Of a stretch of 64,000 nucleotides of DNA, positions 539 through 56,732 are shown one piece after another. This DNA comes from a virus. A program made the position numbers and the translations under genes. Where the stretch lies: positions 805-64,804 of IMG/VR virus record IMGVR_UViG_3300042195_000059, one strand, 5' to 3'. The number at the start of each line of letters is the position of its first letter. Position 1 is the first letter of the stretch. A model generated the notes under the pieces. That model was not told where the DNA came from. It worked only from the letters and a program-made list of their open reading frames with translations, and did not search any database.

Positions 539-609
539 CTTCGTTGTTTAATTCCTATTGCGCATACTTCGCAAATCAGGTAATCCCCTTCCTAGAAGGG
601 AGAACTTAC

Positions 610-23599: not shown

Positions 23600-23856
23600 G
23601 CGTTAAATCCTTCCTCTTCCAGAACCCGGCGTTTTTCTGCTTCGAATTCCTCTCGGCCACAGATTTGCCAGTGTTTCAGACAAAGCCATTCGGGTATATC
23701 GAACTTTGCAAACTGGTTTTTCTTGACGGGTCCATATGGCTTTACCTGCGACTTCGGAAGATAGAATACATCTTCACCTTTTGCATTTCTTGAACATTTT
23801 AGCGCCTTGCCGCTAGATGTCTGCTCGATTACATAGATGTCCACAGTTCTTTTCAT
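23596..23856 (-). CDS. hypothetical protein (86 aa)
   Basis: ORF track; ATGA coupling. Confidence 0.5.
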   Translation of the reverse strand: MKRTVDIYVIEQTSSGKALKCSRNAKGEDVFYLPKSQVKPYGPVKKNQFAKFDIPEWLCLKHWQICGREEFEAEKRRVLEEEGFNA

Positions 23857-24632
23857 GTCAGCCTCACTTTTTTACGTGCGCTTGCTATAGTCTTTTCTGC
23901 CTCCATCTTGTCCAAGCCAGTGGCTTGCGCGGCTTCTGCCAGCGTGGCGGCCCCGCCTGCGTCCAGAAGGCCCGTCTCGGCAGCGCGGCAAGCCGCCCAG
24001 AAAAGGCTGTTGTTCCGGACGCCCTCGCCGGATCTGGCGACGAAATTGACGAGCGGTGCGATGTCGGCAGATGGCTTTTGATCCGACCGCTTGAAAACAG
24101 GTGGGGGCGCTGGCTTCAGCTTCTTGATTGCCCATGCCGGGAGTTTGGGGAAATCGCCGCCAAGCGGTGAATTTTCCCACCTATAGCGCTTGCCTCCGTC
24201 CAGGACGGAAGGCGGCGCGACCACATAGCCGCCCGTGGTTTTGATATCGATGCCGGGAGCCAGAACAGACTTGGAATTCTTCAGGCTCGGCTCATAGGCG
24301 TAATAAAAATGCGTCCCGCCGTTGGCCGTTCTGGCTGTCACCGTCGGCGGAAATTCAAAGCCTGCCTTCTTCAGATCGGCCACGGATTTGTCAGATCCAT
24401 TGCGCGGGTCCAGATCGATCACGATGCATTTCGACGGCAGCCCGGTCGCGATGCCGATGTTGGCCTTGGGTAAATGCCACGCCCAATCCTCGATTATGTC
24501 GTCATCGTCAGTCGCATCGAGGCATCCCCGGCCGCCTTTCGCCTTTGAAATGGCAGGGATTTTTGCACCAGCCAGGAGCGGAAAGATCTTGAATCCGAGC
24601 GGCACAAGATAGAACGCTGCATCAAGAAACAT
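23853..24632 (-). CDS. bifunctional primase/polymerase (Prim-Pol) N-terminal domain protein
   Basis: Motifs FPLLAGAKIP...GIATG...CIVIDLDPRNG...GGTHFYY, typical of archaeo-eukaryotic-primase-type Prim-Pol proteins. Confidence 0.75.
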   Translation of the reverse strand: MFLDAAFYLVPLGFKIFPLLAGAKIPAISKAKGGRGCLDATDDDDIIEDWAWHLPKANIGIATGLPSKCIVIDLDPRNGSDKSVADLKKAGFEFPPTVTARTANGGTHFYYAYEPSLKNSKSVLAPGIDIKTTGGYVVAPPSVLDGGKRYRWENSPLGGDFPKLPAWAIKKLKPAPPPVFKRSDQKPSADIAPLVNFVARSGEGVRNNSLFWAACRAAETGLLDAGGAATLAEAAQATGLDKMEAEKTIASARKKVRLT

Positions 24633-29954: not shown

Positions 29955-30890
29955 TTAGAAGCTGTTGAGCTTGATTTTCAGCGTGCCGAGAATTTTGGTT
30001 TCGCTGAGATCATCGCTGACGCTAGCGCCGACGTTGCTGTCAGCGTCGTAGGCATCGAAGATCGTCTCTTTGTCGTAGAAGGTGTGGGTGCCTTCGATAC
30101 CGAAGAAGACATTGTTGGCCACGGCAAGCTCGATACCGGCTCCGACAGTGATGCCGTCGAAAGTGGTGGTCTTGCTGAGAGTGGCCGCGCCGTCTGTGAC
30201 GCTCAGATCGTATTCAGTCTGGGTGTAGGCAGCGAGGGCGTACAGCAGGGTGCTGTTGTTGACCAGCACACCGGCGCGAACGCCTGCCGACCAGTCATCG
30301 CCGCGTTCGAGTTTGAAGCTGCCGACGCCAGCAACAGAGCCGTCAGCGTCCATGTTCGAGAAGCCATAGGTGCCGAAGACGCCGACCAGAAAGCGGTTGC
30401 TGAGCTGCTGGTCATAGCCAGCGCGAACATCGCCGACGATGCCGGTGCTATTCAGGCCGTCGAGGTGAGCGATTTCGCGACTATCGCCGGGGACTGTAGC
30501 GAAATCGCCTTCTTTCGCAGGAAAGATTTTATACGGATTGCCATGAGTGACAGTTTCACAAGAAAGCCAATCTGTCGTCGGTACGACAGCTTTATCAATT
30601 CTTGTTGCTAAGGTATCATCACGATCCTTATTGCCAAATGGATCGAAGTCCAAGTCAGCGGTATCGTCTGAGCAATAGTCCTTGAAATAATCCCGCACGC
30701 TCAGATCATGGTTGGCATTCCCATACCCGATAGCGCCGCCGAGATAAAAGCCGCTCCAGTTCACCGCAGTTCCCTGTGGAGCTGGATCGTTAAGGGAGTC
30801 GAGAAGATCGCTGGATTGAGCGAAATTCGGCGAAAAAATGACCAGTGAGGCCGCAATCGCCATAGACAACTTTGAGATTTGCATGTACAA
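29955..30890 (-). CDS. outer-membrane beta-barrel protein (Omp25/Omp31-type porin family)
   Basis: Signal peptide MYMQISKLSMAIAASLVIFSPNFAQS, motif NWSGFYLGGAIGYG, alternating beta-strand pattern, and a terminal ...LKIKLNSF. Preceded by AGGAAAA. Confidence 0.8.
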   Translation of the reverse strand: MYMQISKLSMAIAASLVIFSPNFAQSSDLLDSLNDPAPQGTAVNWSGFYLGGAIGYGNANHDLSVRDYFKDYCSDDTADLDFDPFGNKDRDDTLATRIDKAVVPTTDWLSCETVTHGNPYKIFPAKEGDFATVPGDSREIAHLDGLNSTGIVGDVRAGYDQQLSNRFLVGVFGTYGFSNMDADGSVAGVGSFKLERGDDWSAGVRAGVLVNNSTLLYALAAYTQTEYDLSVTDGAATLSKTTTFDGITVGAGIELAVANNVFFGIEGTHTFYDKETIFDAYDADSNVGASVSDDLSETKILGTLKIKLNSF

Positions 30891-30961: not shown

Positions 30962-31531
30962 TCAAGCAGCCGCTTGATTGAATTTCCCTGTTTCGTCGCC
31001 CCATGAGTCCCAGCCGGTACGATCCGTGCGACTGAACAGCTCGACGCGCCAAGCATCCGGCAGATAGCGTTCTGCCCATGCGTAAGCTTCGTCCGGTTTG
31101 CGTGAGTGCTCTCTGACAAGTCCCTCGATGACGTTGCGCTCTGATCGCGAATTGATCGGATTGCCGATGAAGCCCAGAAGGAAGGGTTCGGAGGCGGAGC
31201 GCACGCGGTAGCCGGTGCCGAACGCCGTCTTGCCGTTCACGGTCTTCTTGTGCCAAACGCCGCCGGTTTTATAGTCGAAGCCCCAAGCGCTCATGACTTC
31301 GAACGCCTTGTCGAGCATGGGCCATGTCGCCCAGAGAAAGAGGCAGCAGTCGCCAGATGCGAGTTGTGAAACCGGAAGCGCTTTGATAGCCTCAAGATCC
31401 ATGCAATCGTAATGGTGCTTGGCGTTTTTCTTCTCGCCCTTGACGCTCCAGTTCATGAAGTTCCAAGGCGGGTCGGCGACAATCATTCCGTATGTGAGCG
31501 GGCGCAAGGGCGCGAAGGGCCAGTCTGTCAT
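30962..31531 (-). CDS. MT-A70-family N6-adenine DNA methyltransferase
   Basis: Track ORF trimmed to ATG 31531 (ATGA overlap). Motifs IVADPPWNF and REHSRKPDE. Confidence 0.8.
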   Translation of the reverse strand: MTDWPFAPLRPLTYGMIVADPPWNFMNWSVKGEKKNAKHHYDCMDLEAIKALPVSQLASGDCCLFLWATWPMLDKAFEVMSAWGFDYKTGGVWHKKTVNGKTAFGTGYRVRSASEPFLLGFIGNPINSRSERNVIEGLVREHSRKPDEAYAWAERYLPDAWRVELFSRTDRTGWDSWGDETGKFNQAAA

Positions 31532-31677
31532 ACGACCTCCCCACGCTTGGCGAATCTCGTCTTCGCGTAACGAGCGCATACAGGCTTACGTGACTTGACC
31601 TTGGCCTCATCGCGTTCGACTTTGACTTTTCCGTCACTGTCGATTTTGAGTTTGAAAATGTCGCCGAGCTTGGTCAT
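31528..31677 (-). CDS. small basic protein (49 aa)
   Basis: Track ORF trimmed to ATG 31677 (ATGA overlaps at both ends). Confidence 0.4.
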   Translation of the reverse strand: MTKLGDIFKLKIDSDGKVKVERDEAKVKSRKPVCARYAKTRFAKRGEVV

Positions 31678-32687
31678 GCTTCGCACACTCCCCACTGATC
31701 GCAGGCGGTGCCGAAATCGATTGCCGTCACCAAATTGTATTGACGCCCGCCCCGATCCGTTTTCGACCACTCGACGTGATTACGGACGCCGTGTGTCTGG
31801 TGGGAAATTTCTCCGCGCTCGCGAACGGCAGGATCATCGCAAGCGGCGAAAAACGTGGCCTGCCCACGTTTTGACACTTCGCTGACGAGGCTTTCCCATG
31901 CTTCAATGCGTTCGATGTGCTCCGGGAAACGGCGCGAAATTTCTCGCAGTTCCGACTTCCGGCACATGATGCAAGGCATGCATCCGACGCGGTTCATGCC
32001 TTGCTCGTAAAGCGGGTTAGGCTTGAGATCGTGGCGCTTGTGCATTGCCCACACGTCATCGATCGTCCAGCGCAGCAACGGGCGGTAGGCGTATAGCCGC
32101 CCCGGCAGGTCAGTGATTTCCCGCTGTTCGAGGTGCTGCCACGCTGGGAGGAACGACCGGGCAACGCTTTCATCCGCTCGGACGCCCTGCCACGAGATAA
32201 CGCGCCGCCCTTCGGACAGGATCGGGCAATTGACCTGCTTGTTGATCGGCTTGACCTTAAGCTCTTCGGTGCAGAACCGGGCCTTCGTCGAAGGAAAGCG
32301 GCCTTTCATCATGCACAGGTCAAGGAACGGATTGCCGGTCGGATGGAACAGTTGCAGCGCGCGCTTGATCTTGTCGGCAGGAACGCCATCAAGTGGCCAT
32401 TTCTCTGCGATAAATTTGCGCTTGCGCTCGAAATCTGCGGTGAAGTCAGCTCTCACCCATTGGATTTTAGGACCGCCGGTTTTCTTCGGCAGCGCGCGGA
32501 CAAAATCATAGGTGGCTTCGTGCTCGTTGCCGGTGTCGGCGAAGACGGCTTTGAACGGCCTGCCACGCTCCATCGCCAGCAGATACAGTGCGGTGCTGTC
32601 TTTGCCGCCAGAGACAGAAACGATGTGCTCATATGGTCTGGCGCCGTTGACGATGACGCGCTTTGCGTTCGGGGGAAGCTTTTTCAT
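31674..32687 (-). CDS. PAPS-reductase / PP-loop ATPase family protein
   Basis: ATG 32687 is preceded by GAGGG. PP-loop motif VSVSGGKDSTAL. A Cys-rich C-terminal part includes CMPCIMC. Confidence 0.75.
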   Translation of the reverse strand: MKKLPPNAKRVIVNGARPYEHIVSVSGGKDSTALYLLAMERGRPFKAVFADTGNEHEATYDFVRALPKKTGGPKIQWVRADFTADFERKRKFIAEKWPLDGVPADKIKRALQLFHPTGNPFLDLCMMKGRFPSTKARFCTEELKVKPINKQVNCPILSEGRRVISWQGVRADESVARSFLPAWQHLEQREITDLPGRLYAYRPLLRWTIDDVWAMHKRHDLKPNPLYEQGMNRVGCMPCIMCRKSELREISRRFPEHIERIEAWESLVSEVSKRGQATFFAACDDPAVRERGEISHQTHGVRNHVEWSKTDRGGRQYNLVTAIDFGTACDQWGVCEA

Positions 32688-32998
32688 GCTGCCCTCGCCT
32701 TGCACGAAGGCTCTGCAGAAACAGAATTCCGAACGGCATATTCAGTCTCGCCAAGATCGCGGGCGATGAAGCGGATGCTGAACCCGCAGGCGTAAAGGAT
32801 GTTTGCGGCCTTCAGTTTGATATGGGGCAGGCGTTTGATACGCTCATGGATCGCGTCATTTCTGGCGCGCGCTTCTTCCGTGCAGGCTTTGCACCGCTCC
32901 GAATATCCGGTGTCTCTTGTCTTGTTACGGTTGAAGTTGCATGGCCTCAGTTCAAGCTCTTCCTTGCAAGGGCCTGTGCAAATGGCGGTTTTGATCAT
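32684..32998 (-). CDS. zinc-finger plus HTH-like small protein (104 aa)
   Basis: Track ORF trimmed to ATG 32998, preceded by GAGGG. Motifs CTGPC ... CKAC, then FIARDLGETEYAVRN. Confidence 0.5.
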   Translation of the reverse strand: MIKTAICTGPCKEELELRPCNFNRNKTRDTGYSERCKACTEEARARNDAIHERIKRLPHIKLKAANILYACGFSIRFIARDLGETEYAVRNSVSAEPSCKARAA

Positions 32999-33046
32999 GC
33001 GGCCCTCGCCGTTTTCGTCCAGCATCGTTCCGTTCCGTCTAGGGTT

Positions 33047-33074
33047 GGCCCCTGCCGGGGGTGTGGCAGGGGCC
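33047..33074 (-). terminator. GC-rich hairpin (terminator-like, no U tract)
   Basis: Perfect 10-bp stem GGCCCCTGCC/GGCAGGGGCC with an 8-nt loop, in the 163-nt gap between genes. Confidence 0.35.
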
Positions 33075-33161
33075 AAGGGCACTATGAGAAAGTACTCAGC
33101 GGTGACGCTGGACGAGCCGCTTACACAACCAAACGCAACGCTTACGAAACTGGGAAGGCAC

Positions 33162-33641
33162 TTAAACCAGAACCTGAAATGCAGCCGCGTCCGCCTCACG
33201 CGTGGCCGTGACTTCTTGGTAAAGAAGGTCGAGGCGCTCGGCTTCCGCGATGCATTCCTCACCCTTTCGGCGCATGAATTTGCGCGCATCATCCAAAAGG
33301 TCAGGTTCGTCGATAAGGCCTTGAATGCTGACGTATTCCTGCGCGCTCTCGACGTAGTATGAAGAGCTGCGGAGTTCTTTCACCAGAAGGCCGAACTGCG
33401 GTTCTTTCTCAGCGAAGTCGTGTTGGTTCTCATCGCACGCGTTCTGACGCAGAATGCGCGATACGTGACCGATAAACCCACGGCGCAGGATCGAATAAGC
33501 ACCTTCATGGTGCGCCTCTGCGCACGTCCGAGGGAAGACCGCTTCTAGGATTTCGTCGGCAACCTTCGGAGCGTTGTTGCCAACCCGTGATGCCGCTATG
33601 ACGATGGCTTCATTGACTTCGCGGAGCTGTTCATTCAGCAT
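33162..33641 (-). CDS. hypothetical protein (159 aa)
   Basis: Track ORF trimmed to ATG 33641 (MLNEQLREVNEAI...). Confidence 0.5.
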   Translation of the reverse strand: MLNEQLREVNEAIVIAASRVGNNAPKVADEILEAVFPRTCAEAHHEGAYSILRRGFIGHVSRILRQNACDENQHDFAEKEPQFGLLVKELRSSSYYVESAQEYVSIQGLIDEPDLLDDARKFMRRKGEECIAEAERLDLLYQEVTATREADAAAFQVLV

Positions 33642-34413
33642 TTGCCGCCTCCAGAATATCGTTGAGGAAGTCGCGGCATTCCGTGATGACAGCAAGGCTG
33701 CGGGCGCGTTCGCCTTCGGATCTGAAGCCGCCGATAATGTACTCAGGCGCATACTCACCCGCACCGTCGAGAAGACGCTGACACGACCCGACGATAACGC
33801 GGACTGCCTCAGCCTGAGCGCTGGGCTGATACATGGGGTTCTTGCGGCTGACGCTTGTTCCGTTCCCGCCTCGCAAACCTTGAATTGATGCCGCGATAAT
33901 GCCTTGCCGAAGCGCCGCCTTGGACGGTTCCCCGCCGCTCTTTATGCGGTCATTCAGTATGCGCTTCGTTACGCCGGGGTCTGCCTTTTCAGCATCACGC
34001 AGAGTGCGGGCTTCGTGGATGTCTTTCGATGTCAATCCAAGGTCGCTGACCGAAGGGATATTCTCGTTGGGAATATCCCTCTTGCCCTGACCGCCGCGTC
34101 CTTGGACTTCGCCGCGATCCTGCGCCGCATCGTATTCGTCAGCCAACCGACGTTTCGCGCCAGCCTCGATTTCCAGAGCGTCGGCTTGTGCGCGATAGAC
34201 ACGCTGGATAATATCGTCGTGAGCATCCTTCGCCTTGGCGAGGCGCGCCGTCTTCTTCGCCGCGTCATAGGCGAAAGAGGCTATCTCTTTGGCTTCAAGG
34301 ATTTCCGCCGATGTCCGTGCGCCAGCCAGCGCTTTCGCGGCCCGGTCTATGAGCACGGGAAGCGACTGCATTTGAATCTGCTGCTCTACGGGCTGGTCTA
34401 CAGCGGTCAACAT
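33631..34413 (-). CDS. hypothetical early protein (260 aa)
   Basis: ATG 34413 is preceded by AGGA. Helical N-terminal half. No motif recognised with confidence. Confidence 0.55.
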   Translation of the reverse strand: MLTAVDQPVEQQIQMQSLPVLIDRAAKALAGARTSAEILEAKEIASFAYDAAKKTARLAKAKDAHDDIIQRVYRAQADALEIEAGAKRRLADEYDAAQDRGEVQGRGGQGKRDIPNENIPSVSDLGLTSKDIHEARTLRDAEKADPGVTKRILNDRIKSGGEPSKAALRQGIIAASIQGLRGGNGTSVSRKNPMYQPSAQAEAVRVIVGSCQRLLDGAGEYAPEYIIGGFRSEGERARSLAVITECRDFLNDILEAANAE

Positions 34414-36024: not shown

Positions 36025-36447
36025 ATGGATGACCTCCTAATCACGCGCGATGACCTCATTAAGGGCGGCCTTTGCATGGAAGGCGTGAATGAGGTCATCA
36101 GCAGGGTTTGGCCAATCGCTGCGGCGATGCCGATCAGCGCCATTCTGCCAAGCCTCGACGAAGACGAGAAAGACCAGATGCTAACCGCCGTCAAGGCGGA
36201 CGGCTACGGCAACGGCAACGGCAACGGCGACGGCTCCGGCTACGGCTCCGGCGACGGCTACGGCAACGGCAACGGCAACGGCGACGGCTACGGCTACGGC
36301 TACGGCAACGGCGACGGCGACGGCTACGGCTACGGCTACGGCTACGGCTACGGCAACGGCGACGGCTCCGGCTACGGCTCCGGCGACGGCTACGGCAACG
36401 GCAACGGCAACGGCGACGGCGACGGCTACGGCTACGGCTACGATTAG
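36025..36447 (+). CDS. protein with a 57-aa N-terminal domain and 41 consecutive [D/Y/N/S]-Gly dipeptides
   Basis: The ORF continues from a non-repetitive N-terminus (MDDLLITRDDLIKGGLCMEGVNEV...) into DGYGNGNGNGDGSGYGSGDGYG...GYGYGYD. Confidence 0.6.
   Translation: MDDLLITRDDLIKGGLCMEGVNEVISRVWPIAAAMPISAILPSLDEDEKDQMLTAVKADGYGNGNGNGDGSGYGSGDGYGNGNGNGDGYGYGYGNGDGDGYGYGYGYGYGNGDGSGYGSGDGYGNGNGNGDGDGYGYGYD
36199..36444 (+). repeat. GGC-NAC hexanucleotide tandem repeat (246 nt) with a ~63-nt higher-order duplication
   Basis: Units GGCTAC, GGCAAC, GGCGAC and GGCTCC. The block GGCGACGGCTCCGGCTACGGCTCCGGCGACGGCTACGGCAACGGCAACGGCAACGGCGACGGC occurs twice. Confidence 0.9.
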
Positions 36448-36561: not shown

Positions 36562-37083
36562 ATGATTTTCAATTCTGCCCCCAGCGATGAGCGTCACCAC
36601 TTTAGCTCCGGCGACACTAGTGCCCGTTGCCGTTATGCGGGGGCGGAAGCGCGTCAGTCGTCACGACATATAGCCCAGAGGCGGCTGACGCGCAGCTATT
36701 GGCTGGCGGTAACGCTCGGAACGGTTCTGGCGATCCTGATGCTGCTGTTCGCCCTCACATCCATCTATTTCAATTACACGCCGATCGGCATTTTCTACAC
36801 GGTCGTCGTGGGCAACATCGTCTTCATACTGAAGGTGCTTCAAACATTCCGCAAGCACTACGAGGCGGCGAACAAGACCTGCTGCCTTCAAGCGGAGGTC
36901 ATCGAGAAACTCGGTCAAGACAACATCGATCTCCAGCATGACGTTGAATACTGGAAAGCAATTTCCTTCACCAAGCGGGGTGGACTGACGGTGGTGGGGG
37001 AAGCGGCGGCGGGGCAATCCCGTTCGGAAAATCAGGAGGGCTCCGCCGCCGTTGTTCCTTTCAAGACAGATGGAGCGGCGTGA
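36562..37083 (+). CDS. membrane protein (2 TM) with C-terminal coiled coil (173 aa)
   Basis: TM helices WLAVTLGTVLAILMLLFALTSIYF and IGIFYTVVVGNIVFIL. Located just after a terminator. Confidence 0.5.
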   Translation: MIFNSAPSDERHHFSSGDTSARCRYAGAEARQSSRHIAQRRLTRSYWLAVTLGTVLAILMLLFALTSIYFNYTPIGIFYTVVVGNIVFILKVLQTFRKHYEAANKTCCLQAEVIEKLGQDNIDLQHDVEYWKAISFTKRGGLTVVGEAAAGQSRSENQEGSAAVVPFKTDGAA

Positions 37084-37333: not shown

Positions 37334-37618
37334 ATGAGCAAGCTTGTCACATGCGCAGTCAGCCACCTTCCTGCCGGTCATCCGAACGCTTGCGGCGATT
37401 GCGATCCCTGCATCGTGCACGACCGCCCGAAGCAGCTCGAAGCGCTCTATGTGGACTGGGAGCGCATGTACTGGAACATCAAATCTCTCATGAGCTCCGC
37501 ACAAGCCGCAAGCTATGCGCTGAAAAGCTACGAGTACGGTAATTCGTCACCGGAGCTTGCACAAGAGGTGATCGTGGCGCTTGAAGCAGATCTAGCCAAA
37601 GCAAGAGGCGCACAATGA
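37334..37618 (+). CDS. Cys-rich hypothetical protein (94 aa)
   Basis: Track ORF trimmed to ATG 37334 (MSKLVTCAVSHLPAGHPNACGDCDPCIVH...). Confidence 0.5.
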   Translation: MSKLVTCAVSHLPAGHPNACGDCDPCIVHDRPKQLEALYVDWERMYWNIKSLMSSAQAASYALKSYEYGNSSPELAQEVIVALEADLAKARGAQ

Positions 37619-37950
37619 CCCCATCCGTAGAAGCCTACATCTCTCTCGACGGCACCGGCTACACGATCAGCGACAAGGGCGGAATGTTCCCCTGCGATCT
37701 GTACGCGGATATCGCGCCGGGAATGATGCCGGGAGATTTCGAGATCACCGCCATTTATGTCGGCTCTGAACACGTCAGTTTCAAGGAACGCCTTACCGGA
37801 GATCGTCACGACGAAGCCGCTCTCATTCTGATCAAGGATCACGACTGGCTTGAATGGGCGGAAGAACAAGGCGGCGTTGATGCTGATTGTCGGCGTCCTG
37901 CTGGCGGCGATGTTGGTTCAACGCATGTCGATGCGGGGGCACAGATATGA
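37615..37950 (+). CDS. hypothetical protein (111 aa)
   Basis: ATGA coupling at both ends. Confidence 0.5.
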   Translation: MTPSVEAYISLDGTGYTISDKGGMFPCDLYADIAPGMMPGDFEITAIYVGSEHVSFKERLTGDRHDEAALILIKDHDWLEWAEEQGGVDADCRRPAGGDVGSTHVDAGAQI

Positions 37951-38198
37951 CCGTTGAAGACAGGGTGAAGCGGGTAATCGGAAGCCATTTCGATCTCGAT
38001 CCGGACATGATCAAGGTCACTTCTGAACTCGAAGTTCTTGGCGCGGATAGTCTCGACCTCATCGAACTGCTCATGGCCCTTGAGGAAGAATTCAGAGTTG
38101 AACTGCCAGACAATGACGAGATCTGCCACATCGCGACAGTGAAAGACGTGGTGAGGATGGTCAAGGATCATCTCTCCCATCAGGGAGTAACAGCATGA
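37947..38198 (+). CDS. acyl carrier protein
   Basis: Track ORF trimmed to ATG 37947 (ATGA overlap). 83 aa with the canonical ACP helix-II motif LGADSLDLIELLMALEEEF, which includes the DSL phosphopantetheine-attachment serine. Confidence 0.85.
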   Translation: MTVEDRVKRVIGSHFDLDPDMIKVTSELEVLGADSLDLIELLMALEEEFRVELPDNDEICHIATVKDVVRMVKDHLSHQGVTA

Positions 38199-38422
38199 CC
38201 TCAGACCGCGAACGCAAGCTCAAATTCATCGCCGAAGCTGGCTTCACCGATTTCCGCAAGAGCGTCATCGAAATGCTCTCAAGGCGCGGCCCCGATTGGC
38301 TCACAGACGATCAGATCGATGATCTTTACAGGGCAGAAGCCGCTGCCTGGGAACGGGCGCAGAGGCGGAATGCAGAGAACCGTGAACTTGCAGCCAGCGC
38401 CAAGCACGGGAGAGCGGCATGA
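38195..38422 (+). CDS. hypothetical protein (75 aa)
   Basis: ATGA coupling. Confidence 0.5.
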   Translation: MTSDRERKLKFIAEAGFTDFRKSVIEMLSRRGPDWLTDDQIDDLYRAEAAAWERAQRRNAENRELAASAKHGRAA

Positions 38423-39270: not shown

Positions 39271-39452
39271 CCTGGGAAGAGCGCTGCAAAGCCGTGCCCC
39301 TCGGCACGAAGGCCCCAGCCATTGGCGGAGGCTACTGGATCAAAACCGATCGCGGATGGAAATGGCACAACGGAGCTACCTTTCCTTGTCCAGGAGGGGA
39401 TTGGACCGGGGAATTGATTGAACCCGCGAAGAAGGAAGAGGACGGGAAATGA
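39267..39452 (+). CDS. hypothetical Trp/Gly-rich protein (61 aa)
   Basis: ATGA coupling. Confidence 0.45.
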   Translation: MTWEERCKAVPLGTKAPAIGGGYWIKTDRGWKWHNGATFPCPGGDWTGELIEPAKKEEDGK

Positions 39453-39952
39453 CCACAATTCGCGACCTTGCCAGAGAAACAGAAGCCGCCCGCGCCCTCC
39501 GCGCGAACCTGGCTGACATTATTCAGGATGAAGACGACGCCCGTGATTTTGTCGAAGGCGAAACCAACCTTCTGGAAGCCATTGAGCTTGCCGTCAAGCA
39601 GACCGGTGAAGACGAGGCCGCTATCGAAGCGATCGACAATTACGTCGCCAAGCTTAAGGGCCGGAAGGATCGTCTCAAGAGCCGCTTGGAGGCCACACGC
39701 ACCGCTATTGCCGTTGCGATGAACCAAGCCAGCCAGAAGAAGATGGAGACGCCTTACGGCACCGTGACGCGGAAGTACACCATCAAGACCGCGATCATCA
39801 CCGATGAAACCAGCATACCCACACATTACTGGAAACCGCAAGACCCGAAGCTGGACAAGGCGAAGCTCGCTTCCGACATGCGTGCCGGCCAACGGATCGA
39901 AGGCGCAACGCTGTCCAACGGCGGCGAAACTGTAGCGATTAAGAGGGGCTGA
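39449..39952 (+). CDS. Siphovirus Gp157-like protein
   Basis: 167 aa with an acidic helical N-terminus, immediately upstream of RecT as is usual for the Gp157 family. Recognised from memory of the family. Confidence 0.5.
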   Translation: MTTIRDLARETEAARALRANLADIIQDEDDARDFVEGETNLLEAIELAVKQTGEDEAAIEAIDNYVAKLKGRKDRLKSRLEATRTAIAVAMNQASQKKMETPYGTVTRKYTIKTAIITDETSIPTHYWKPQDPKLDKAKLASDMRAGQRIEGATLSNGGETVAIKRG

Positions 39953-39954
39953 CC

Positions 39955-40938
39955 ATGAACGCACTCGTCAGATTTGATCCGAAACAAGTTGCTCTCATCA
40001 AGCAGACAGTCGCCAAAGACGCTGACGATGACGAGTTCAATCTCTTTGTCGAGATGTGCAAGGCGCGCGGACTCAATCCACTGACGCGGCAAATCTTCTG
40101 CCAGATATACAACAAAGACAATCCAGCCAAGCGTCAGATGGTCATCGTCGTGTCTCGCGAGGGGCAGCGCTCCATTGCCGAGCGCACCGGTTCCTATCGC
40201 CCCGACGAACAGCCAACCCGATTTGTAACATGCGAGAAGGTGCCAGCATCAAACCCTGCCGGTCTCGTCAGTGCAGAAGTGGCAGTCTACAAATACGCGA
40301 AAGACGGATGGTATCCGGTTCCCGCCGTTGTCTATTGGGAAGAATTCGCTCCCTTGATTGAAGCGGCTGAGGATGAGCGTTGGGAAGAGACGGGCGAAGT
40401 CTGGCCTGACACAGGGAAGCCCAAAAAGAAGAAAATTACCAGCGGCGAAATCATCACCAAGCTTGATCCGTCAAAACAGAACTGGCGCAAAATGCCTCGC
40501 CTGATGCTGGAAAAGTGCGCGGAAATGGCTGCGTTGCGCAAGGCATTTCCTGACGATTTCGGCGGGCTGTATGGCGAAGAGGAAATGGATCGGGGTGACA
40601 TCATAGATCTGACGCCAACTGAGATGGCCGAGAAATCCGCGCGCGAAGATCGCCTCGCCAAGATAGGCGGTCCTGATACCTACATCATCGATTGGCTTGA
40701 CGGCAACGAGCTTCAAAACGTGCCCGGCGGTAAGTTCGCCGATCAGGTCATGGCCTTCATCACGAGCTGCAAAGACGAACCGAGCGCCATCCGCACATGG
40801 AAAGATCGCAATAAGCATAGTTTCCGCCAGTTTTGGGCAGCGCACAAGGGCGAAGCGCTTGAACTAAACAAAGCCCTTGAGGCTGCAAGTCAGCCCGTCA
40901 CCGCCGGTCATGACCCTATAGGGGAGGAAGCGGCGTAA
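39955..40938 (+). CDS. recT: RecT/Bet-family single-strand annealing recombinase
   Basis: Motifs DEFNLFVEMCKARGLNPLTRQIFCQ ... VSREGQRSIAERTG ... EKCAEMAALRKAFPD, typical of RecT. Confidence 0.8.
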   Translation: MNALVRFDPKQVALIKQTVAKDADDDEFNLFVEMCKARGLNPLTRQIFCQIYNKDNPAKRQMVIVVSREGQRSIAERTGSYRPDEQPTRFVTCEKVPASNPAGLVSAEVAVYKYAKDGWYPVPAVVYWEEFAPLIEAAEDERWEETGEVWPDTGKPKKKKITSGEIITKLDPSKQNWRKMPRLMLEKCAEMAALRKAFPDDFGGLYGEEEMDRGDIIDLTPTEMAEKSAREDRLAKIGGPDTYIIDWLDGNELQNVPGGKFADQVMAFITSCKDEPSAIRTWKDRNKHSFRQFWAAHKGEALELNKALEAASQPVTAGHDPIGEEAA

Positions 40939-44609: not shown

Positions 44610-45066
44610 CCCCACGCGCAGCGAGCTTCTGGACGAATACTACACCGTTTTGCATCAAGCCCATGCGGCTATGCGGCTTGCCATGAAGGACAGCGGACTG
44701 TCGAATGAAGAAATTTCCTCGAAACTTGGCAAAGAGACGCCGACACTAAAAACGCTGAGCTTCATGGCAACCGAAATCGGTTGTCGCGTGGAATTGATGT
44801 TCACTCCGTTCAGCGAAATTGGCAAATCAAAATCCCGGCCGATGGAAGAAGCCCCATTGGATGGAACACCGCTTCTTCTGTTTGCCCGACACCCGGATGC
44901 TGAAGTCGAAGCACCAATAATCGGAGCATGGCGAGACGGCAATTGGTGGGCTGTACGCTTCATTGGCGAAGCGCCTTGCCGCGTCATCCCGATCGCATGG
45001 ATGCACATACCTGAGTTTACAGACGCGACCCATGCTCCGTTTCACAACCCAGGAGCCGACCAGTGA
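44602..45066 (+). CDS. protein with DUF551-like C-terminal domain (154 aa)
   Basis: Track ORF trimmed to ATG 44602. The C-terminus PLDGTPLLLF...GAWRDGNWW...IAWMHIPE resembles DUF551. Confidence 0.45.
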   Translation: MNDPTRSELLDEYYTVLHQAHAAMRLAMKDSGLSNEEISSKLGKETPTLKTLSFMATEIGCRVELMFTPFSEIGKSKSRPMEEAPLDGTPLLLFARHPDAEVEAPIIGAWRDGNWWAVRFIGEAPCRVIPIAWMHIPEFTDATHAPFHNPGADQ

Positions 45067-45362
45067 GCAGATGCCCTGAATGCCAATACCGCAAGACCAT
45101 GGTAGCGGATTCCCGCCCTCGCGATAACTGGAAAATCGTATTTCGCCGGAGACGATGCGCCAAGTGTGGGCACAGGTTCAATACTATCGAGTCATACGAA
45201 ATGGCGGGCGGAAATGTGGTTGGACCGGCCAAGAGGCGCGCGATTGCAGAGGCAAGGCGCGCTTTGCAATCTGGCATTCGCGTGCTCGATGAAATCGACA
45301 TCTCCGACGAGATCGCCAGAGGCGCCAGCCAGTTTCAGAATACCGGAGGCGACAATGAGTGA
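45063..45362 (+). CDS. NrdR-like zinc-ribbon protein lacking the ATP-cone
   Basis: MSRCPECQYRKTMVADSRPRDNWKIVFRRRRCAKCGHRFNTIE matches the NrdR N-terminal pattern CP.C...T.V.DSR......RRRR.C..C..RF.T.E. At 99 aa it is too short to hold an ATP-cone. Confidence 0.6.
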   Translation: MSRCPECQYRKTMVADSRPRDNWKIVFRRRRCAKCGHRFNTIESYEMAGGNVVGPAKRRAIAEARRALQSGIRVLDEIDISDEIARGASQFQNTGGDNE

Positions 45363-45690
45363 CGGCTACCACGATGACGAGGTGCTGACCCAGACGGAAG
45401 CCGCGCGGCGTCTCAAATACTCGGTCCGCTATTTCTCGACACTGGACATTCCCTATATAGGCCGACACAAGGCGAAGCGCTATCGTTGGGGTGACATAGC
45501 AGCGTGGCAGGAGAGAAATAAAACATGCCCAGCATCTACGTCTTCCGGCGCAAGTGGAAGGACAAGGAAGGCAAGCAGCAAATCGCAAAAGAGTTCTCCG
45601 CAGAGATACGATTCTCAGGCGGTGCCAGATATCTCCGACGTACTGGAGAGACTGAGGAACGGCGCGCAAAAGCGGCTGCCCGCGGCCTAG
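45355..45690 (+). CDS. xis: excisionase-like HTH protein (3' end overlaps int by 166 nt)
   Basis: Track ORF 45166..45690 trimmed to ATG 45355. Motif LTQTEAARRLKYSVRYFSTLDIPYIGRHKAKRYRWGDIAAWQERN (HTH_17/MerR-type). The low-complexity tail continues in frame into int. Confidence 0.55.
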   Translation: MSDGYHDDEVLTQTEAARRLKYSVRYFSTLDIPYIGRHKAKRYRWGDIAAWQERNKTCPASTSSGASGRTRKASSKSQKSSPQRYDSQAVPDISDVLERLRNGAQKRLPAA

Positions 45691-46664
45691 CGGCCGATAT
45701 CGAGGCCAAGGAGCTTCCCAGGCGCGGCAAGGAAGTCATGACGCTGGGGAAGATGTTCGCCAAATGGGGGATGGAGAAGGGCAACGAGCTGCGATCCGGT
45801 AAGGACGTTGCTTGGCAGATCGAGAAGCTCATGCAGTTCATTGGAGAAGCTCGCGAGGTCGCGGAAATCGGCAACAAGAATGTAAACGGATTCGTGCAGG
45901 ACGCCAAGCTGGCTGGTCACGGCCCCGTCGTAATCAACCGATGCCTTGAGCGGCTGCGCGCCACGATGAACTTTGCGGCGAAGCGTTGGGAAGAACCCGT
46001 GCGGGTAATCGATTGGAGAGAATTCCGGCAGAAGGAACCGAAGGCGAGAGAAGTTTATCTGTCGCCGCCCGAAGCGCGCAGATTGATGGAGGCGCTGCCA
46101 AAGCATATTGCGCTGGCGTTTGCATTCACGCTGTACACGGGATGTCGTCTGAACGAGATGCAGACGCTTCGATGGGATTGGATCGACTTCGGGCGCGGCG
46201 TGGCTAATGTGATCACGAAAGCTCAGGGCGCGGAGATTGTCACGCGGCTACTGTGGTTGTCCGAAAAGGCTATGCGCGTGCTTCACGGTGTCGGCGTTCC
46301 GCCAGAGATCGAAATCGGCGCATGCGTGCCAATCGAGAGAGTCAGGGTCTTCACGTTGACGAACCGGCGGCGACATTGGGAAGCCGCTCGCAAGAAGATC
46401 GGGCGGGAGGATCTGCACTGGCATGACATCCGCGCAATGACCGCCAGTTGGGCGCGGCAGTACACGCGAGCGGACAACACGCTGATTGCCGAAACGCTCG
46501 GACACTCTGACGTTGAAGTGACAAGAAGATACACGCGCGTCGTGGACAGGGAGATTGTGGAGATGCTGAATCAGTTGCCGGACATCGACGTTGCAGATGC
46601 CGCGACGGCTGCACCTATCGAATCTACCATCAATCTTATTGACCAGAAGGCGCGGAACACTTAG
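45525..46664 (+). CDS. int: tyrosine integrase
   Basis: Arm-binding-like N-terminus and a C-terminal region HWHDIRAMTASW...LGHSDVEVTRRYTRV (the His/Arg/Tyr catalytic region of tyrosine recombinases). Confidence 0.9.
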   Translation: MPSIYVFRRKWKDKEGKQQIAKEFSAEIRFSGGARYLRRTGETEERRAKAAARGLAADIEAKELPRRGKEVMTLGKMFAKWGMEKGNELRSGKDVAWQIEKLMQFIGEAREVAEIGNKNVNGFVQDAKLAGHGPVVINRCLERLRATMNFAAKRWEEPVRVIDWREFRQKEPKAREVYLSPPEARRLMEALPKHIALAFAFTLYTGCRLNEMQTLRWDWIDFGRGVANVITKAQGAEIVTRLLWLSEKAMRVLHGVGVPPEIEIGACVPIERVRVFTLTNRRRHWEAARKKIGREDLHWHDIRAMTASWARQYTRADNTLIAETLGHSDVEVTRRYTRVVDREIVEMLNQLPDIDVADAATAAPIESTINLIDQKARNT

Positions 46665-52693: not shown

Positions 52694-53413
52694 TCACGCC
52701 ATTTGCAGATAACAACTCACGAGCCCATTGGTCCCTTCGTCGTCCATATCCACAGTCGTGTCTTGCGGCGCTGAATTGTAGATTCTGAATTTCAGAAACA
52801 GGATGGTATCGGGATTAATTTCCCCGCCTGCCGCTGGGGTAAATGTACGTGGGTCAACCCCGCCTGTGCCGTAATATGCAGCGATTACCACCAAGGGGGC
52901 ATCACCCCCGGACGCAGCGACATTCTGGCTCGATGGATTTCCCGTTGTGCCCTCGCTGTTGACTGTAGAAGGCGTGATCATTGTCGCCGCCGGAGAACGC
53001 CGGAACACCGCCAACGCCTTCTTGTTTGCAAAGACAGGATCAATCCCCGCGATTGATGTACTACCTTCGCTTCCGTCAGCCTCCTTATAGCTGACAACCA
53101 TTGCGGTCGTAGCGGAGGGGGTGAAACTAGCAAGCGCAGTAAAGTCCGTCGGCGTAGCAGGAGTGACAGCCCCGAAATCCTGACCGATATCGGCAAGGAC
53201 CAGTAAATCGCCAGCCTGAATGTTAGGAGGCACCGTGATTGTATCATCAGTGCTAACGGCTGAATCGAAAAAAAGAATAGCTGCAGCGGACGAAGCAGCC
53301 ATCATCAGCCCCGGAAACATCCCCGGCAAAAAGCTCGCCTTCTGAACAGGCGCGGGCCGGATGATTGCAGGCTTTGCAGGCAGCCAGATTTTCGGCGGAA
53401 GATCCCAGATCAT
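52694..53413 (-). CDS. tail-associated protein (239 aa)
   Basis: ATGA-coupled to the collagen-like fibre gene. Confidence 0.5.
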
Positions 53414-54837
53414 GCCGGACTCCCATCAACCGCAGTCACGATGAACTGACCGGTCGCGCGGCAATAAATCGTAAGCAGATAGCCCTTCGTCGTCGTGATA
53501 TCGTCGAGCGTTGGCGGTGCGCCGCCATACTCACTGCCGAAAGTAAGCGTGTCCGGTCCGCCATCACTAATGACGAACACCGTTCGGAACGTGCCGGGGA
53601 TTTCATTGGTAGGATTGCCGAGAATGCGATTCGTGGTGAGCGTCAGCGTGAAGTTGATTCCCGCCGTCCAGTCGATTGCGACGGTGGCGGCATCTGTGAG
53701 CGCCACGAGGGCGTTCGCTGTTTGCAAATCTTGCGCCGTGATGGCGTGAGCGCCTGATGTGGCGGCGTAGATTTCTGCATCTGTTGCCAGATCAACGATG
53801 CCTTCTGTGCCCTCAGTCGCTGTCGCGGGGGTTGGTCCAGTTGGGCCGGTCGGCCCAGTCGCTCCCGTGACGCCCGTGGGACCAGTCGGGCCTGTAACGC
53901 CAGTTGGCCCCGTTGCGCCAAGGTCTCCGGCTCGCGCAAATTCCAGAACGCAAGGATCAGTGTTTGATAGCGTTCCAGCGCTCACGACATGAGTTAGTGC
54001 GAGCTGCGTCCAACCAGTATCGTCTGTACTGGCTCCGGTAATATTATATATCGCAAAATTTGCCGGGTCAGCGATCTGCTTGATATATAGCGTACCGCGA
54101 ACCGAATTCGTACTATCATCCCATGCGAGGATGGCGTTGGTCACCGCTGGATTGCCTGTATCAGCAGAATTATCCGATACAGCCGCTGCTGTGACTGAGG
54201 CGAGCGTCGCATTGTTGAGGCGGAAATCACCGGCCCCAGGGTCAGCCATGGCGGTCGCGCTGTCGAACAGGAACCGATAACCGGGATGCGCACCATCAAC
54301 GCCGGTTGGCCCTGTCGGTCCTGTTGCGCCGGTCGGCCCAGTGACACCAGTCGGCCCCGTTGGCCCGGTAACACCAGTGGGGCCAGTTGGCCCCGTTGCG
54401 CCAGTGACCCCCGTTGGTCCGGTAGGTCCAGTTGCGCCAGTCGGGCCTCCTGATGGCCCTGTCGGACCTTCCGGCCCTGTCGGTCCCGTTGGACCCGTTG
54501 GACCCGTTAACCCTGTTGACGCGTCAACCAAGCGCCCGCCAGTCAAGATCAGATCGCCGCCGTCGCCGTCGCAAAATATCGAAAGATGCGTCTCGCCAGC
54601 GAGAACCCCTATATAAGCAGGATCAGCCGTAGACCCCGGCAAAAGCCGCATCGACGTGTCTTTGTCGCCCGTGACCGTACCGTCGCCGAGCTTGATCCAT
54701 ATCGCATCCATGTTCCCCTGACGCGAGGTCAGGCGGATCATCGGAGCATCAGCAGGCAGCGGCGGGAGTTCGACGCGTTGATCCGTTTGCGTGACGGTGA
54801 TTATATCACCATCACCCAAGGGGGCGAATATCGTCAT
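53410..54837 (-). CDS. tail fibre with collagen-like Gly-X-Y repeats
   Basis: (GPT/GAT/GVT)n blocks at aa 109-182 (nt 54292-54513) and aa 307-335 (nt 53833-53919). Confidence 0.75.
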
Positions 54838-54852
54838 GTTGTGTGGAGATCC

Positions 54853-55926
54853 TTAGAGGGCGTAGAAGCCGTCACCCCAGAGGGTGGCCAATCTTTCGAA
54901 ATGGGTCTGGTATTTTTGCGCGACGGTATCGGTCGAATAGAGACTTACGGCGCGGTCTCGGATATAATGCGGATCGAGATCACGCACAGCGTCAGCCGCC
55001 GCCATGAACTCTTTGAGCGTGTGGCATCTGAACCCGGTCTTGCCGTCTTCGACGGTCTCTGTCGCGGCCCCGAATGGGGTGGCAATGACAGGGGTGCCGC
55101 AAAGCTGGGCTTCAACCGCCACATTTCCGAAGCACTCGACATACAGCGAAGGCATCCAGAGCGCCTGCGCCCCGGACATGAGCCGCCCGCGCTCCTCCGG
55201 TCCGACGACGCCGACATATTCGATATGATCGCCCTTTGGCGGCTCGCCCTGCCCGGCGATGATGAGGCGCTTTCCTAGGCGTTGGCAGGCTTCAACGGCT
55301 ATGCCGTAGCCTTTGCGCTCGATCAACCTGCCCATGAACAGATGGTAATCGTCTTTCTCCGCACGGAAGGGGAAATCCCTAGGATCGAATGAGCCAGGAA
55401 TGACGCAATCAAACAGGAGACCATCAATCGCGTTCGGATTGCTGTTTGCCGATCCCCAGCACAGATGCTGCCACGCCGCCGATTCCCAAATCCGATACTT
55501 GGCAAAGGTGCCGCCATAGCCGATACTATGTTCGACGGTCATCATGTGAGGGAAAGCGTCGGCAATTTCCTTGTGAGCCAGACCGCCCTGCACGCAGATG
55601 AAATCATGAGGCTGGGCGCGCGCTCTGATACCCTCGATTGCGCGCTGATTAAATGCCCGCCAATGTGGCAAGCTATAGTCGAAACTCGCTTCCACAAAAT
55701 GTTTCGGCCCGACCGCTGCGGCGCGTTCTTCCTCGGAGATGCAAGGAATATGCTCTGTGCATTCTGCATCGCTCTCAGGCCCGGCGTAGAGAAACACCTC
55801 GTGGCCGTTCGTCGAGTGCATCATTCCACAGAACTTCCGCACTCTCTCGGTAAACGCACAAGCTGTGAAAGCTTCCGTAACGGAAGTATGCGGGAGTCCA
55901 ACACAGTGTATGCGAAATTTTTGCAT
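54853..55926 (-). CDS. GT-B (GT1/GT4-like) glycosyltransferase
   Basis: Track ORF trimmed to ATG 55926. The C-terminal half LFMGRLIERKGY...PSLYVECFGNVAVEAQLCGTPVIATPFGAATETV carries the E-x7-E-type GT4 signature. Confidence 0.7.
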   Translation of the reverse strand: MQKFRIHCVGLPHTSVTEAFTACAFTERVRKFCGMMHSTNGHEVFLYAGPESDAECTEHIPCISEEERAAAVGPKHFVEASFDYSLPHWRAFNQRAIEGIRARAQPHDFICVQGGLAHKEIADAFPHMMTVEHSIGYGGTFAKYRIWESAAWQHLCWGSANSNPNAIDGLLFDCVIPGSFDPRDFPFRAEKDDYHLFMGRLIERKGYGIAVEACQRLGKRLIIAGQGEPPKGDHIEYVGVVGPEERGRLMSGAQALWMPSLYVECFGNVAVEAQLCGTPVIATPFGAATETVEDGKTGFRCHTLKEFMAAADAVRDLDPHYIRDRAVSLYSTDTVAQKYQTHFERLATLWGDGFYAL

Positions 55927-56078
55927 ATTTGTTTGCTGCTTGCTTTCTGGCGGATGTTTTGTAGAGTTTGTTGCCGCGTTTTTAAAGCGCTGCAACGTGC
56001 AATTTGCATCTATTTTTATGGGCAAGTGATTTGTTGGTTTTATTGAAAAAGAGCTTACCATTTTACAGTGCGTGCGCC

Positions 56079-56732
56079 ATGAACTGTGGGGTCAAGCTTC
56101 CCTTGGACACTAAGATCATGTCGAGAAAAGTCCGTCGAGGACTACGCAAGGGAACCTATGAGATTGAAGAGGCTGAAGCAGCCAGAGATCTTTTTCTCGC
56201 AAATGACACTGTACTGGAACTCGGTGCTGGTATCGGCTTCATGTCTAGCTATCTGCGCAAATACACAGGTGTTGGGCGAATTGTTGCATATGAAGCTGAC
56301 GCCAGGCTAATCCCTTGCATCGAGCGCACTCACACGCTAAACGACGTCACCTCGATTGAAGTTCACAACGCTGTCGTTACGCATTCAGATGGCTCTGGAG
56401 CACTGCCTTTCTATATCAGAGATGAGTTTTGGGCCAGCTCGCTCTCGCCAAATCAGAAAGGGGTTGTTAATACGACATCGGTCCCAACAAAGAATTGGGC
56501 CGAGGTGCTTGCAGACATCAGGCCGACTGCGTTGGTCATGGACATTGAAGGCGGTGAAGTAGATCTGCTGGAAAATTGCGACTTGGGGTCTATCGACCGC
56601 GCTGTCATAGAACTTCACCCATCGAGAGGCGGCATTATCGGAATGGCGAAAGTATATACTGCCATCGTTAATCAGGGATTCACTCTCATCAGGGAGAGTG
56701 CAGATCGATCTGTGATTTCCATACGGCGGTAA
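56079..56732 (+). CDS. FkbM-family methyltransferase
   Basis: Motifs VLELGAGIGFMSSY...AYEADARL...LVMDIEGGEVDLL. The start is uncertain (56079 or 56118). It is divergent from the glycosyltransferase gene. Confidence 0.7.
   Translation: MNCGVKLPLDTKIMSRKVRRGLRKGTYEIEEAEAARDLFLANDTVLELGAGIGFMSSYLRKYTGVGRIVAYEADARLIPCIERTHTLNDVTSIEVHNAVVTHSDGSGALPFYIRDEFWASSLSPNQKGVVNTTSVPTKNWAEVLADIRPTALVMDIEGGEVDLLENCDLGSIDRAVIELHPSRGGIIGMAKVYTAIVNQGFTLIRESADRSVISIRR

Follow-up and report, generated by a model that had tools for sequence, protein, structure and literature searches.

An AcpP-type acyl carrier protein gene in the early operon of a temperate phage: a single-gene cassette without recognised partner enzymes

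The DNA analysed here (the window) is a stretch of 64,000 nucleotides, positions 805 to 64,804 of the IMG/VR virus record IMGVR_UViG_3300042195_000059. On its plus strand it carries a gene for an 83-amino-acid protein predicted to be an acyl carrier protein (ACP). The gene belongs to the rightward operon and lies in a group of small genes flanked by the immunity region on one side and by genes for recombination (a Gp157-like protein and RecT) on the other. The features of the locus are listed below, with positions in the window.

37947..38198 (stop included), plus strand: ACP gene (83 amino acids, AcpP-type), assigned from PF00550 above its gathering score, PHROG 5934, the AcpP-type NCBIfam models and the ACP fold
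38037..38093, plus strand: residues 31-49, LGADSLDLIELLMALEEEF, end of loop I and helix II (recognition helix), from the alignment to E. coli AcpP
38049..38051, plus strand: codon AGT of Ser35, predicted 4'-phosphopantetheine attachment site, read directly; the serine is invariant in the aligned homologues
38109..38141, plus strand: residues 55-65, DNDEICHIATV, covering loop II and helix III and including a one-residue clade-specific insertion and a Cys/Trp-His pair, from alignments
37947..37952, plus strand: ATGACC at the left edge of the cassette, overlapping the upstream gene's stop codon
38195..38200, plus strand: ATGACC again, at the right edge of the cassette, where the downstream gene starts
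37615..37950, plus strand: upstream gene, 111 amino acids, no family assignment, not a constant partner of the ACP
38195..38422, plus strand: downstream gene, 75 amino acids, no family assignment, a frequent but not obligate neighbour of the ACP

The ACP open reading frame (ORF) runs from an ATG at 37947 to a TGA at 38196-38198 and its product is MTVEDRVKRVIGSHFDLDPDMIKVTSELEVLGADSLDLIELLMALEEEFRVELPDNDEICHIATVKDVVRMVKDHLSHQGVTA. This frame, with the serine of a DSL motif, had been described in an original prediction made from the letters of the DNA, and it was confirmed from the sequence. A longer version starting at a TTG at 37887 (103 amino acids) was rejected, because it runs into the upstream gene and all homologues begin at the ATG. 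The original prediction had also stressed a translational coupling of the gene on both sides. The two ATGA overlaps are present, one with ORF 37615-37950 and the other with ORF 38195-38422, but they are not specific to the ACP gene: in the rightward operon, successive genes meet at 31 junctions, and 15 of these are 4-nt overlaps. Being so common there, they indicate a shared operon and not a shared pathway. The G+C content of the ACP gene (50.8%) is the lowest of the operon, in which the other non-repeat genes have 55-59%. A recent capture of the gene was considered on this basis and rejected, because its G+C content at third codon positions (GC3) is similar to that of its neighbours. Scans for promoters and terminators gave matches at or below the chance level, and the neighbours of the ACP gene received no Pfam, PHROG or PADLOC assignment.

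The protein was compared with family models and known structures. Pfam PF00550 (PP-binding) was matched with 40.6 bits (gathering score 20.8, E 3e-10) over profile positions 1-67 of 67. The best PHROG was PHROG 5934, 'acyl carrier protein' (E 1.8e-13, 51.4 bits, profile positions 17-90 of 93). The six top NCBIfam models were all of the housekeeping ACP type (PRK00982 variants, TIGR00517 and PRK08172, with 56-67 bits), and the remaining ACP models, which are not of the AcpP type, gave at most 31 bits. The top sequence matches in the PDB were E. coli AcpP chains, in complexes with FabH and FabD (E 1e-13). Scores against the E. coli and Brucella AcpP proteins were 50-54 bits (50.3 bits for the Brucella melitensis ACP). 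An AlphaFold model built from the single sequence was poor (predicted local distance difference test, pLDDT, 68), and a model built from an 8-sequence alignment (pLDDT 84.8) was used instead. Foldseek aligned this model to E. coli acyl-ACP with a probability of 1.00, a root-mean-square deviation of 1.4 A and TM scores of 0.78-0.89. Helices I, II and IV are clear in the AF2 model, and helix III is a three-residue helical turn. The protein is predicted from this model to have the ACP helical-bundle fold. PF00550, PHROG 5934, the PDB matches and the fold model thus agree on a genuine ACP, as had been proposed, and not on a non-carrier helical family.

The window ACP resembles housekeeping AcpP (E. 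coli; TIGR00517 / PRK00982; PDB 1T8K and 9KA6) in length (83 versus 78 amino acids), fold and acidity (pI 4.5, net charge -11), and the two are ~41-43% identical. They have in common an N-terminal (M)T-(V/I)-E-(D/E)-RVK and a C-terminal HQ. Helix II is nearly identical (LGADSLDLIELLMALEEEF in the window ACP versus LGADSLDTVELVMALEEEF in AcpP) and the DSL serine is kept. Residues D34-S35-L36-D37, E40, E46, E47 and E48 align with D35-S36-L37-D38, E41, E47, E48 and E49 of AcpP; the six acidic residues of helix II (AcpP D35, D38, E41 and E47-49) are all retained, as are the hydrophobic core positions. In ACPs, the serine bears the 4'-phosphopantetheine, and AcpS and the fatty acid synthase (FAS) enzymes use the acidic face of the recognition helix. 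The serine was invariant throughout alignment A1 (eight sequences), and it is also present in each of five other phage ACPs. This invariance across phage ACPs argues that the prosthetic group matters. Judged by these residues, the window protein is a bona fide AcpP-type (type II FAS-like) carrier whose predicted phosphopantetheine site is intact. The window ACP differs from AcpP in a lower acidity (net charge -11 versus -15), in its location in a phage early operon and not in a fabD-fabG-acpP-fabF cluster, and in helix III. There, DNDEICHIATV stands against DEEAEKITTV in AcpP, with one extra residue and with I-C-H in place of A-E-K.

To examine the lineage of the protein, 1.84 billion cluster representatives were searched exhaustively with phmmer, which gave 9,733 ACP-like matches. 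Full-length identities above ~50% were found only in its own cluster. The next single-domain match, P0015, is 49% identical and is encoded on a small contig in the same kind of operon. Both proteins have the helix III signature LPDN-x-x-I-[CW]-H-I-A-T (LPDNEKIWHIAT in P0015), which is partly found in P0090 and not in AcpP. In scans of IMG/VR and of JGI metagenomes, relatives were found at 47% identity or less only. Among the GTDB representative genomes, the ACP query matched only AcpP-like sequences of unrelated bacteria (36-48% full-length identity). Identity to alphaproteobacterial-type AcpP was 40-43%, equal to that with E. coli AcpP. Because the protein is only 40-43% identical to AcpP and at most ~50% identical to anything else, a recent capture of a host gene was rejected. 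The window ACP belongs instead to an old, separate small lineage with P0001 and P0015, of which P0090 is perhaps also a member.

An identical protein (100%) is encoded in two further metagenome contigs, L092 and L093, and proteins with 96% identity in L001 and L002. The ACP genes of the window and of L001 differ by four synonymous and three conservative non-synonymous changes, which corresponds to a ratio of non-synonymous to synonymous substitution rates (dN/dS) of ~0.2; the ratio is 0.11 for the ACP and downstream genes taken together. The identity of 96-100% amid differing neighbours, the dN/dS and the conservation of the helix III motif at 49% identity point to purifying selection on the ACP.

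The borders of the ACP gene were defined by comparison with relatives that carry it and relatives that lack it. Over the ACP gene and the initial 64 codons of its downstream neighbour, the window has 97% DNA identity to the ACP-bearing metagenome relatives; in L001 and L092, the genes that precede the ACP are unrelated to those in the window. In contig L097, a homologue of the upstream gene (94.5% amino acid identity) runs straight into a homologue of the downstream gene (75%) through one ATGA, and the ACP is missing from this junction. Positions 37618-37950 of the window align to 5672-6004 of L097, and positions 38195-38386 to 6001-6192. Both borders in the window have the sequence ATGACC. 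No ACP was found in L098-L100, nor in the fetched region around recT of Rhizobium phage RHph_N28_2. The ACP-less junction of L097 shows the ACP gene to be a cassette of exactly one gene, which some close relatives carry and others lack and which is, on this comparison, dispensable.

Neither flanking gene was retained as a partner of the ACP. In L001, L092, L093 and the window itself the 75-amino-acid downstream protein adjoins the ACP, and in L095 it is encoded two genes further on. It is also present without any ACP in L097-L100 and was rejected as an obligate partner. The 111-amino-acid upstream gene was rejected as a constant partner, since its L097 homologue occurs without an ACP and since it is replaced in L001 and L092. 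An all-against-all BLASTP of the ORFs within 5 kb of the ACP at 11 loci gave no conserved partner gene beyond the immediate clade. In related phages the same slot of the early operon (L097 2698-4780 and L092 365-961) holds genes for a pentapeptide-repeat protein, a Lar restriction-alleviation protein, a Phage_P22_Y8K6 protein and an HNH_3 protein. From this varied content, the slot is a hot spot for exchangeable accessory genes.

The remainder of the window was searched for enzymes with which the ACP could work. Pfam scans of ~125 of its ORFs found no holo-ACP synthase (ACPS) or other phosphopantetheinyl transferase (PPTase) domain, and no ketosynthase, acyltransferase, AMP-binding or thioesterase domain. 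The statement that no partner enzyme is visible in the window was confirmed, and the label 'orphan' is justified at the sensitivity of Pfam. There are no fab genes in the window, and the neighbours of the ACP gene are small phage ORFs. The window represents a phage genome, whole or in large part: it encodes a terminase, a Prim-Pol, RecT, an integrase, a CHAP lysin and a collagen-repeat fibre. These genes bear out the temperate-phage early-operon context that had been proposed for the ACP. The main phage genes are the following.

15087-16445, minus strand: terminase
23856-24632, minus strand: Prim-Pol
39449-40935, plus strand: Gp157-like protein and RecT
45525-46661, plus strand: tyrosine integrase
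Also encoded in the window: an SU10-type adaptor, a portal-like protein of 861 amino acids, an LPD23 domain, an HNH endonuclease and a NinB-like protein

The phage is temperate and podovirus-like. Its RecT shares 47% identity with the counterpart in Rhizobium phage RHph_N28_2, and the portal-like protein is closest to proteins of Bradyrhizobium, Rhizobium and Brucella phages. These distant phage relatives make a Rhizobiales host likely, and GcrA-like genes in related metagenomic contigs point to the Alphaproteobacteria. Megablast of 10-20 kb around the ACP gene gave no match in the cultured-phage or plasmid collections. The RecT query had no match in the GTDB representative genomes, and no related prophage was found there. 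Scans of the window for tRNAs and with Rfam gave no matches.

The window ACP was also compared with the specialised carriers NodF, AcpXL and RkpF of the likely host order. These proteins resemble it in being extra carriers besides AcpP, of the same fold family and with the serine site. They are set apart by dedicated adjoining genes (NodE for NodF, the acpXL-fabZXL-fabF1/2XL-lpxXL cluster, and rkpA-E), which the window lacks. The authentic Sinorhizobium meliloti NodF, taken from pSymA directly upstream of a 402-amino-acid ORF presumed from its size and position to be nodE, was matched with 14.5 bits. Tblastn of the plasmid collection found no Sym-plasmid nodF gene at E 0.01, and over a whole 3.5-Mb Sinorhizobium replicon the single match with E <= 0.01 was an acpP-like locus (H78). 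The likeness to AcpXL and RkpF was judged from partner genes, tblastn and NCBIfam models.

Other phages were found to encode ACPs as well. Tblastn of the phage collection detected ACPs in 43 records, some unannotated contigs and misfiled bacterial records included; Brevundimonas phage Bajun, Erythrobacter phage R6L, Ralstonia phage phiRSL1, Prochlorococcus phage P-HM2 and Pseudomonas phage pf16 are among those named. Foldseek against viral models added the ACPs of phiCbK, Seuss, ViI and others. At five other phage ACP loci, the ACP gene lies amid small, mostly unassigned genes without a nearby FAS partner. The serine of the DS(L/F)D motif was kept in all phage ACPs compared. Orphan ACPs have been annotated in dozens of phages, those of alphaproteobacterial phages and prophages included, and the window ACP is a new member of this group (PHROG 5934 / 4154; vB_EliS_R6L gp32, Bajun, Caulobacter phiCbK-like phages, phiRSL1, cyanophage P-HM2 and the acpP genes of Rhodobacteraceae prophages). 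Like them, it is small and stand-alone, with a conserved serine and without a FAS partner. Unlike them, it belongs to a lineage of its own with the helix III insertion, being only 35-47% identical to the other phage ACPs, and its cassette nature is directly seen against an ACP-less relative.

The function of the Erythrobacter phage R6L ACP has been called unclear (PMC5463345). The acpP gene was reported in eight Rhodobacteraceae prophages, and it is the sole auxiliary metabolic gene (AMG) in one of those described (PMC8224337). Duplicated ACPs occur in a 'host-interface island' of flavobacterial jumbo phages (PMC13573597), and a computational proteome-wide prediction paired a phage ACP with host FabZ (PMC13291599). 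No experimental characterisation of orphan phage ACPs was found in the literature search. Two further loci were noted during these searches. In an AT-rich phage contig (L088 2758-3933; IMG/VR UViG_3300030361_000004), an ACP domain with 47% identity and a kept serine forms the N-terminus of a 391-amino-acid ORF; the remaining ~310 amino acids have no Pfam match, and the ORF may be a fusion or an assembly read-through. In the metagenomic podovirus-like contigs L003-L006, an orphan ACP of 116 amino acids with an N-terminal extension (P0006) is encoded two genes downstream of an Acb2/Tad1-hairpin protein (anti-CBASS / anti-Thoeris sponge family).

The hijacking of a host pathway and the decoy role, both raised in the original prediction, are plausible. 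We tentatively favour a role of the phage ACP as a surrogate for, or competitor of, AcpP in host acyl-ACP metabolism, dependent on host AcpS. The host AcpS would attach 4'-phosphopantetheine to Ser35. Through its conserved acidic helix II, the holo-ACP would then dock on clients of the host AcpP: FabD/H/F/G/Z/I, PlsX, LpxA/D and possibly acyl-homoserine lactone (AHL) synthases. Early in lytic growth, the ACP would in this way tap or skew host acyl-ACP metabolism, with the altered helix III biasing the choice of clients, and it would act as a conditional fitness factor and not as a core replication function. Two arguments lead to this proposal. As no PPTase or acyl-handling enzyme was recognised in the phage, the ACP must rely on its host. 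As the serine and the entire recognition helix are conserved, formation of the holo form by the host AcpS and docking on AcpP clients are the most likely course. The published pairing of a phage ACP with host FabZ is an independent hint in the same direction. A possible precedent by role is AcpB of Enterococcus faecalis (PMC6509188), an auxiliary second ACP. It illustrates that an additional AcpP-like protein can feed into, or alter, how fatty acid synthesis is regulated in the host without running its own pathway. Unlike the phage gene, acpB is chromosomal, with links to plsX and fakB-type functions.

Several observations weigh against a surrogate or competitor of AcpP. The equivalog cut-off for AcpP was narrowly missed (TIGR00517, 64.7 versus 70.45 bits), and the scores for NF002148 (66.9 versus 71 bits) and NF002149 (64.5 versus 106 bits) were also below the cut-offs. 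With a loop I that lacks one residue relative to AcpP, and with an altered helix III, the protein may not serve every FAS enzyme. The likely Rhizobiales host rests on distant phage relatives. All steps beyond the identity of the ACP, namely phosphopantetheinylation, acylation and interaction, are inferred from sequence. The AcpP of the host is, moreover, normally very abundant, so the effect of a mere extra carrier is perhaps negligible, which favours a specific or inhibitory role.

Such a role is the content of the first alternative, in which the ACP is a decoy or inhibitor. It would mimic AcpP to titrate one host protein, for host shut-off or anti-defence; candidate targets are AcpS with the coenzyme A pool, a phospholipid acyltransferase, SpoT/Rel, an SMC/MukB-like complex and an immune sensor. 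We regard this as unlikely overall but as deserving attention. In E. coli, apo-ACP is toxic by inhibiting the acylation of glycerol-3-phosphate, and AcpP binds SpoT, MukB and IscS, which count for a decoy. So do the small size and high acidity of the ACP, and a presence/absence pattern typical of counter-defence cassettes. The AcpP-SpoT interaction is the subject of PMC3340395. The neighbourhood argument is that the slot holds host-takeover and anti-restriction genes in relatives (Lar_restr_allev, pentapeptide-repeat protein, Phage_P22_Y8K6) and that P0006 lies two genes from the Acb2/Tad1-hairpin protein; it is circumstantial, and no PADLOC or anti-defence family was matched. The invariant serine of the phage ACPs examined would be superfluous for a pure surface mimic, though not for a holo-dependent decoy.

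A narrower form of this idea takes the serine into account. Encoded in an exchangeable early cassette, the phage ACP would mimic a hub protein: it would copy the recognition helix of AcpP, need its 4'-phosphopantetheine arm, and bind and disable one AcpP-binding host factor, for which an SMC/MukB-like or other immune complex, SpoT/Rel, AcpS and an AHL synthase are candidates. It would be a counter-defence or takeover effector and not a metabolic helper. This form is quite doubtful; if true, it would give a function to the entire class of orphan phage ACPs.

A pathway of the phage's own is improbable. In this explanation, the ACP would serve phage enzymes that were not recognised, or the MptE-like protein, Methyltransf_24, GT4 and FkbM enzymes of the window, in the acylation of a virion component, a surface glycan or a lipid. 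The presence of these modification enzymes, the lack of a family assignment for most small early ORFs and the fusion of the L088 ACP domain to a 310-amino-acid region without assigned function speak for it. However, the ~125 ORFs yielded no domain for acyl activation, condensation or transfer. The transferases belong to the late and virion blocks, at a distance of 17-32 kb, three of the four on the opposite strand. The ACP is exchanged as a single gene, both flanking genes persist without it, and no neighbour is conserved across the differing phage ACP loci. The cooperation with phage glycosyl- and methyltransferases that had been suggested earlier is therefore disfavoured, these enzymes being at least 17 kb away among late and tail-fibre genes and the ACP an independently exchangeable cassette.

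It is very unlikely that the gene is a functionless passenger, i.e. a recently captured acpP-like gene drifting in a mosaic operon. Its absence from relatives and its G+C content, the lowest of the operon, would fit, but the frame is intact, the motifs are perfect, dN/dS is ~0.2 and the protein is identical in contigs with differing neighbours; an identity to AcpP of only 40-43% and a neighbour-like GC3 do not suggest a recent host capture. Scarcely credible, finally, is the link to specialised rhizobial ACPs raised in the original prediction, i.e. an analogue of AcpXL, NodF or RkpF that would bring about lysogenic conversion by way of the acylation of lipid A, Nod factor or capsule: the cultured phages most closely related to this one do infect Rhizobiales, where extra ACPs occur, but the window ACP is AcpP-like (50-54 bits, against 14.5 bits for NodF and at most 31 bits for the non-AcpP NCBIfam models), the Sinorhizobium replicon gave a single acpP-like match, no dedicated ketosynthase or acyltransferase lies nearby, and the place in the early operon argues for lytic and not lysogenic expression.

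Whichever role applies, the question at stake is whether the acyl-ACP metabolism of the host is fed, redirected or blocked by phage ACPs. Phages as different as jumbo phages, cyanophages, phiCbK-like phages and alphaproteobacterial prophages carry stand-alone ACP genes. These are labelled AMGs, and the papers found on them call their function unclear or offer predictions only. What is new here is the cassette nature of the gene, a natural ACP-minus comparator, an isolated lineage with the helix III insertion and an AcpP-like, not NodF-like, sequence. The locus is a favourable test case, as the cassette consists of the ACP gene only and there are natural relatives from which precisely this gene is absent. 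The window ACP keeps the predicted docking features for host AcpS and FAS while helix III is distinctive, and a temperate phage should be genetically tractable in a lysogen.

Other genes of the window were noted in passing. The MptE-like/DUF115 protein (PF01973, 515 amino acids; 5446-6990) and Methyltransf_24 (6972-7484) are encoded on the minus strand inside the virion-gene block, which suggests a possible modification of a virion protein. The gene for the collagen-repeat tail-fibre-like protein (53413-54837, minus strand) contains 27-nt tandem repeats; beside it are the GT4 glycosyltransferase (54856-56061, minus strand) and the FkbM-family methyltransferase (56004-56729, plus strand), and the group (53413-56729) may be a surface-glycan or lysogenic-conversion module. 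A DNA-modification cluster (30965-34413, minus strand) encodes an MT-A70 methyltransferase, a PAPS-reductase-like protein and a 260-amino-acid protein matching PHROG 799 (DNA methyltransferase). In the leftward block, a moron-like gene (29958-30890, minus strand) encodes an outer-membrane beta-barrel protein (PF13505), for which the plasmid collection gave two weak partial matches only (32-33% identity). A homing-endonuclease-like ORF of 387 amino acids, with HNH_3 and multiple helix-turn-helix domains, is found among the virion genes (310-1470, plus strand), and an NrdR-like zinc-ribbon protein is encoded directly upstream of the integrase (45063-45362, plus strand).

Two genes located upstream of the ACP gene were also noted. 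The first, an early gene (36025-36447, plus strand; GC3 0.89), encodes a 140-amino-acid protein with a 58-amino-acid N-terminal domain and a Gly/Tyr/Asn/Asp tail of ~80 amino acids, the tail being encoded by ~40 copies of a 6-nt repeat. Its L092 homologue has 122 amino acids and another repeat arrangement, so the length of the tract differs among relatives. The second (36562-37080, plus strand) encodes a 173-amino-acid protein with two hydrophobic stretches that, by eye, appear to span the membrane. This protein has a weak PADLOC match to the reverse transcriptase (RT)-associated SLATT effector domain (E 0.0018) and is kept in the ACP-bearing contigs L001 and L092 (55% amino acid identity).

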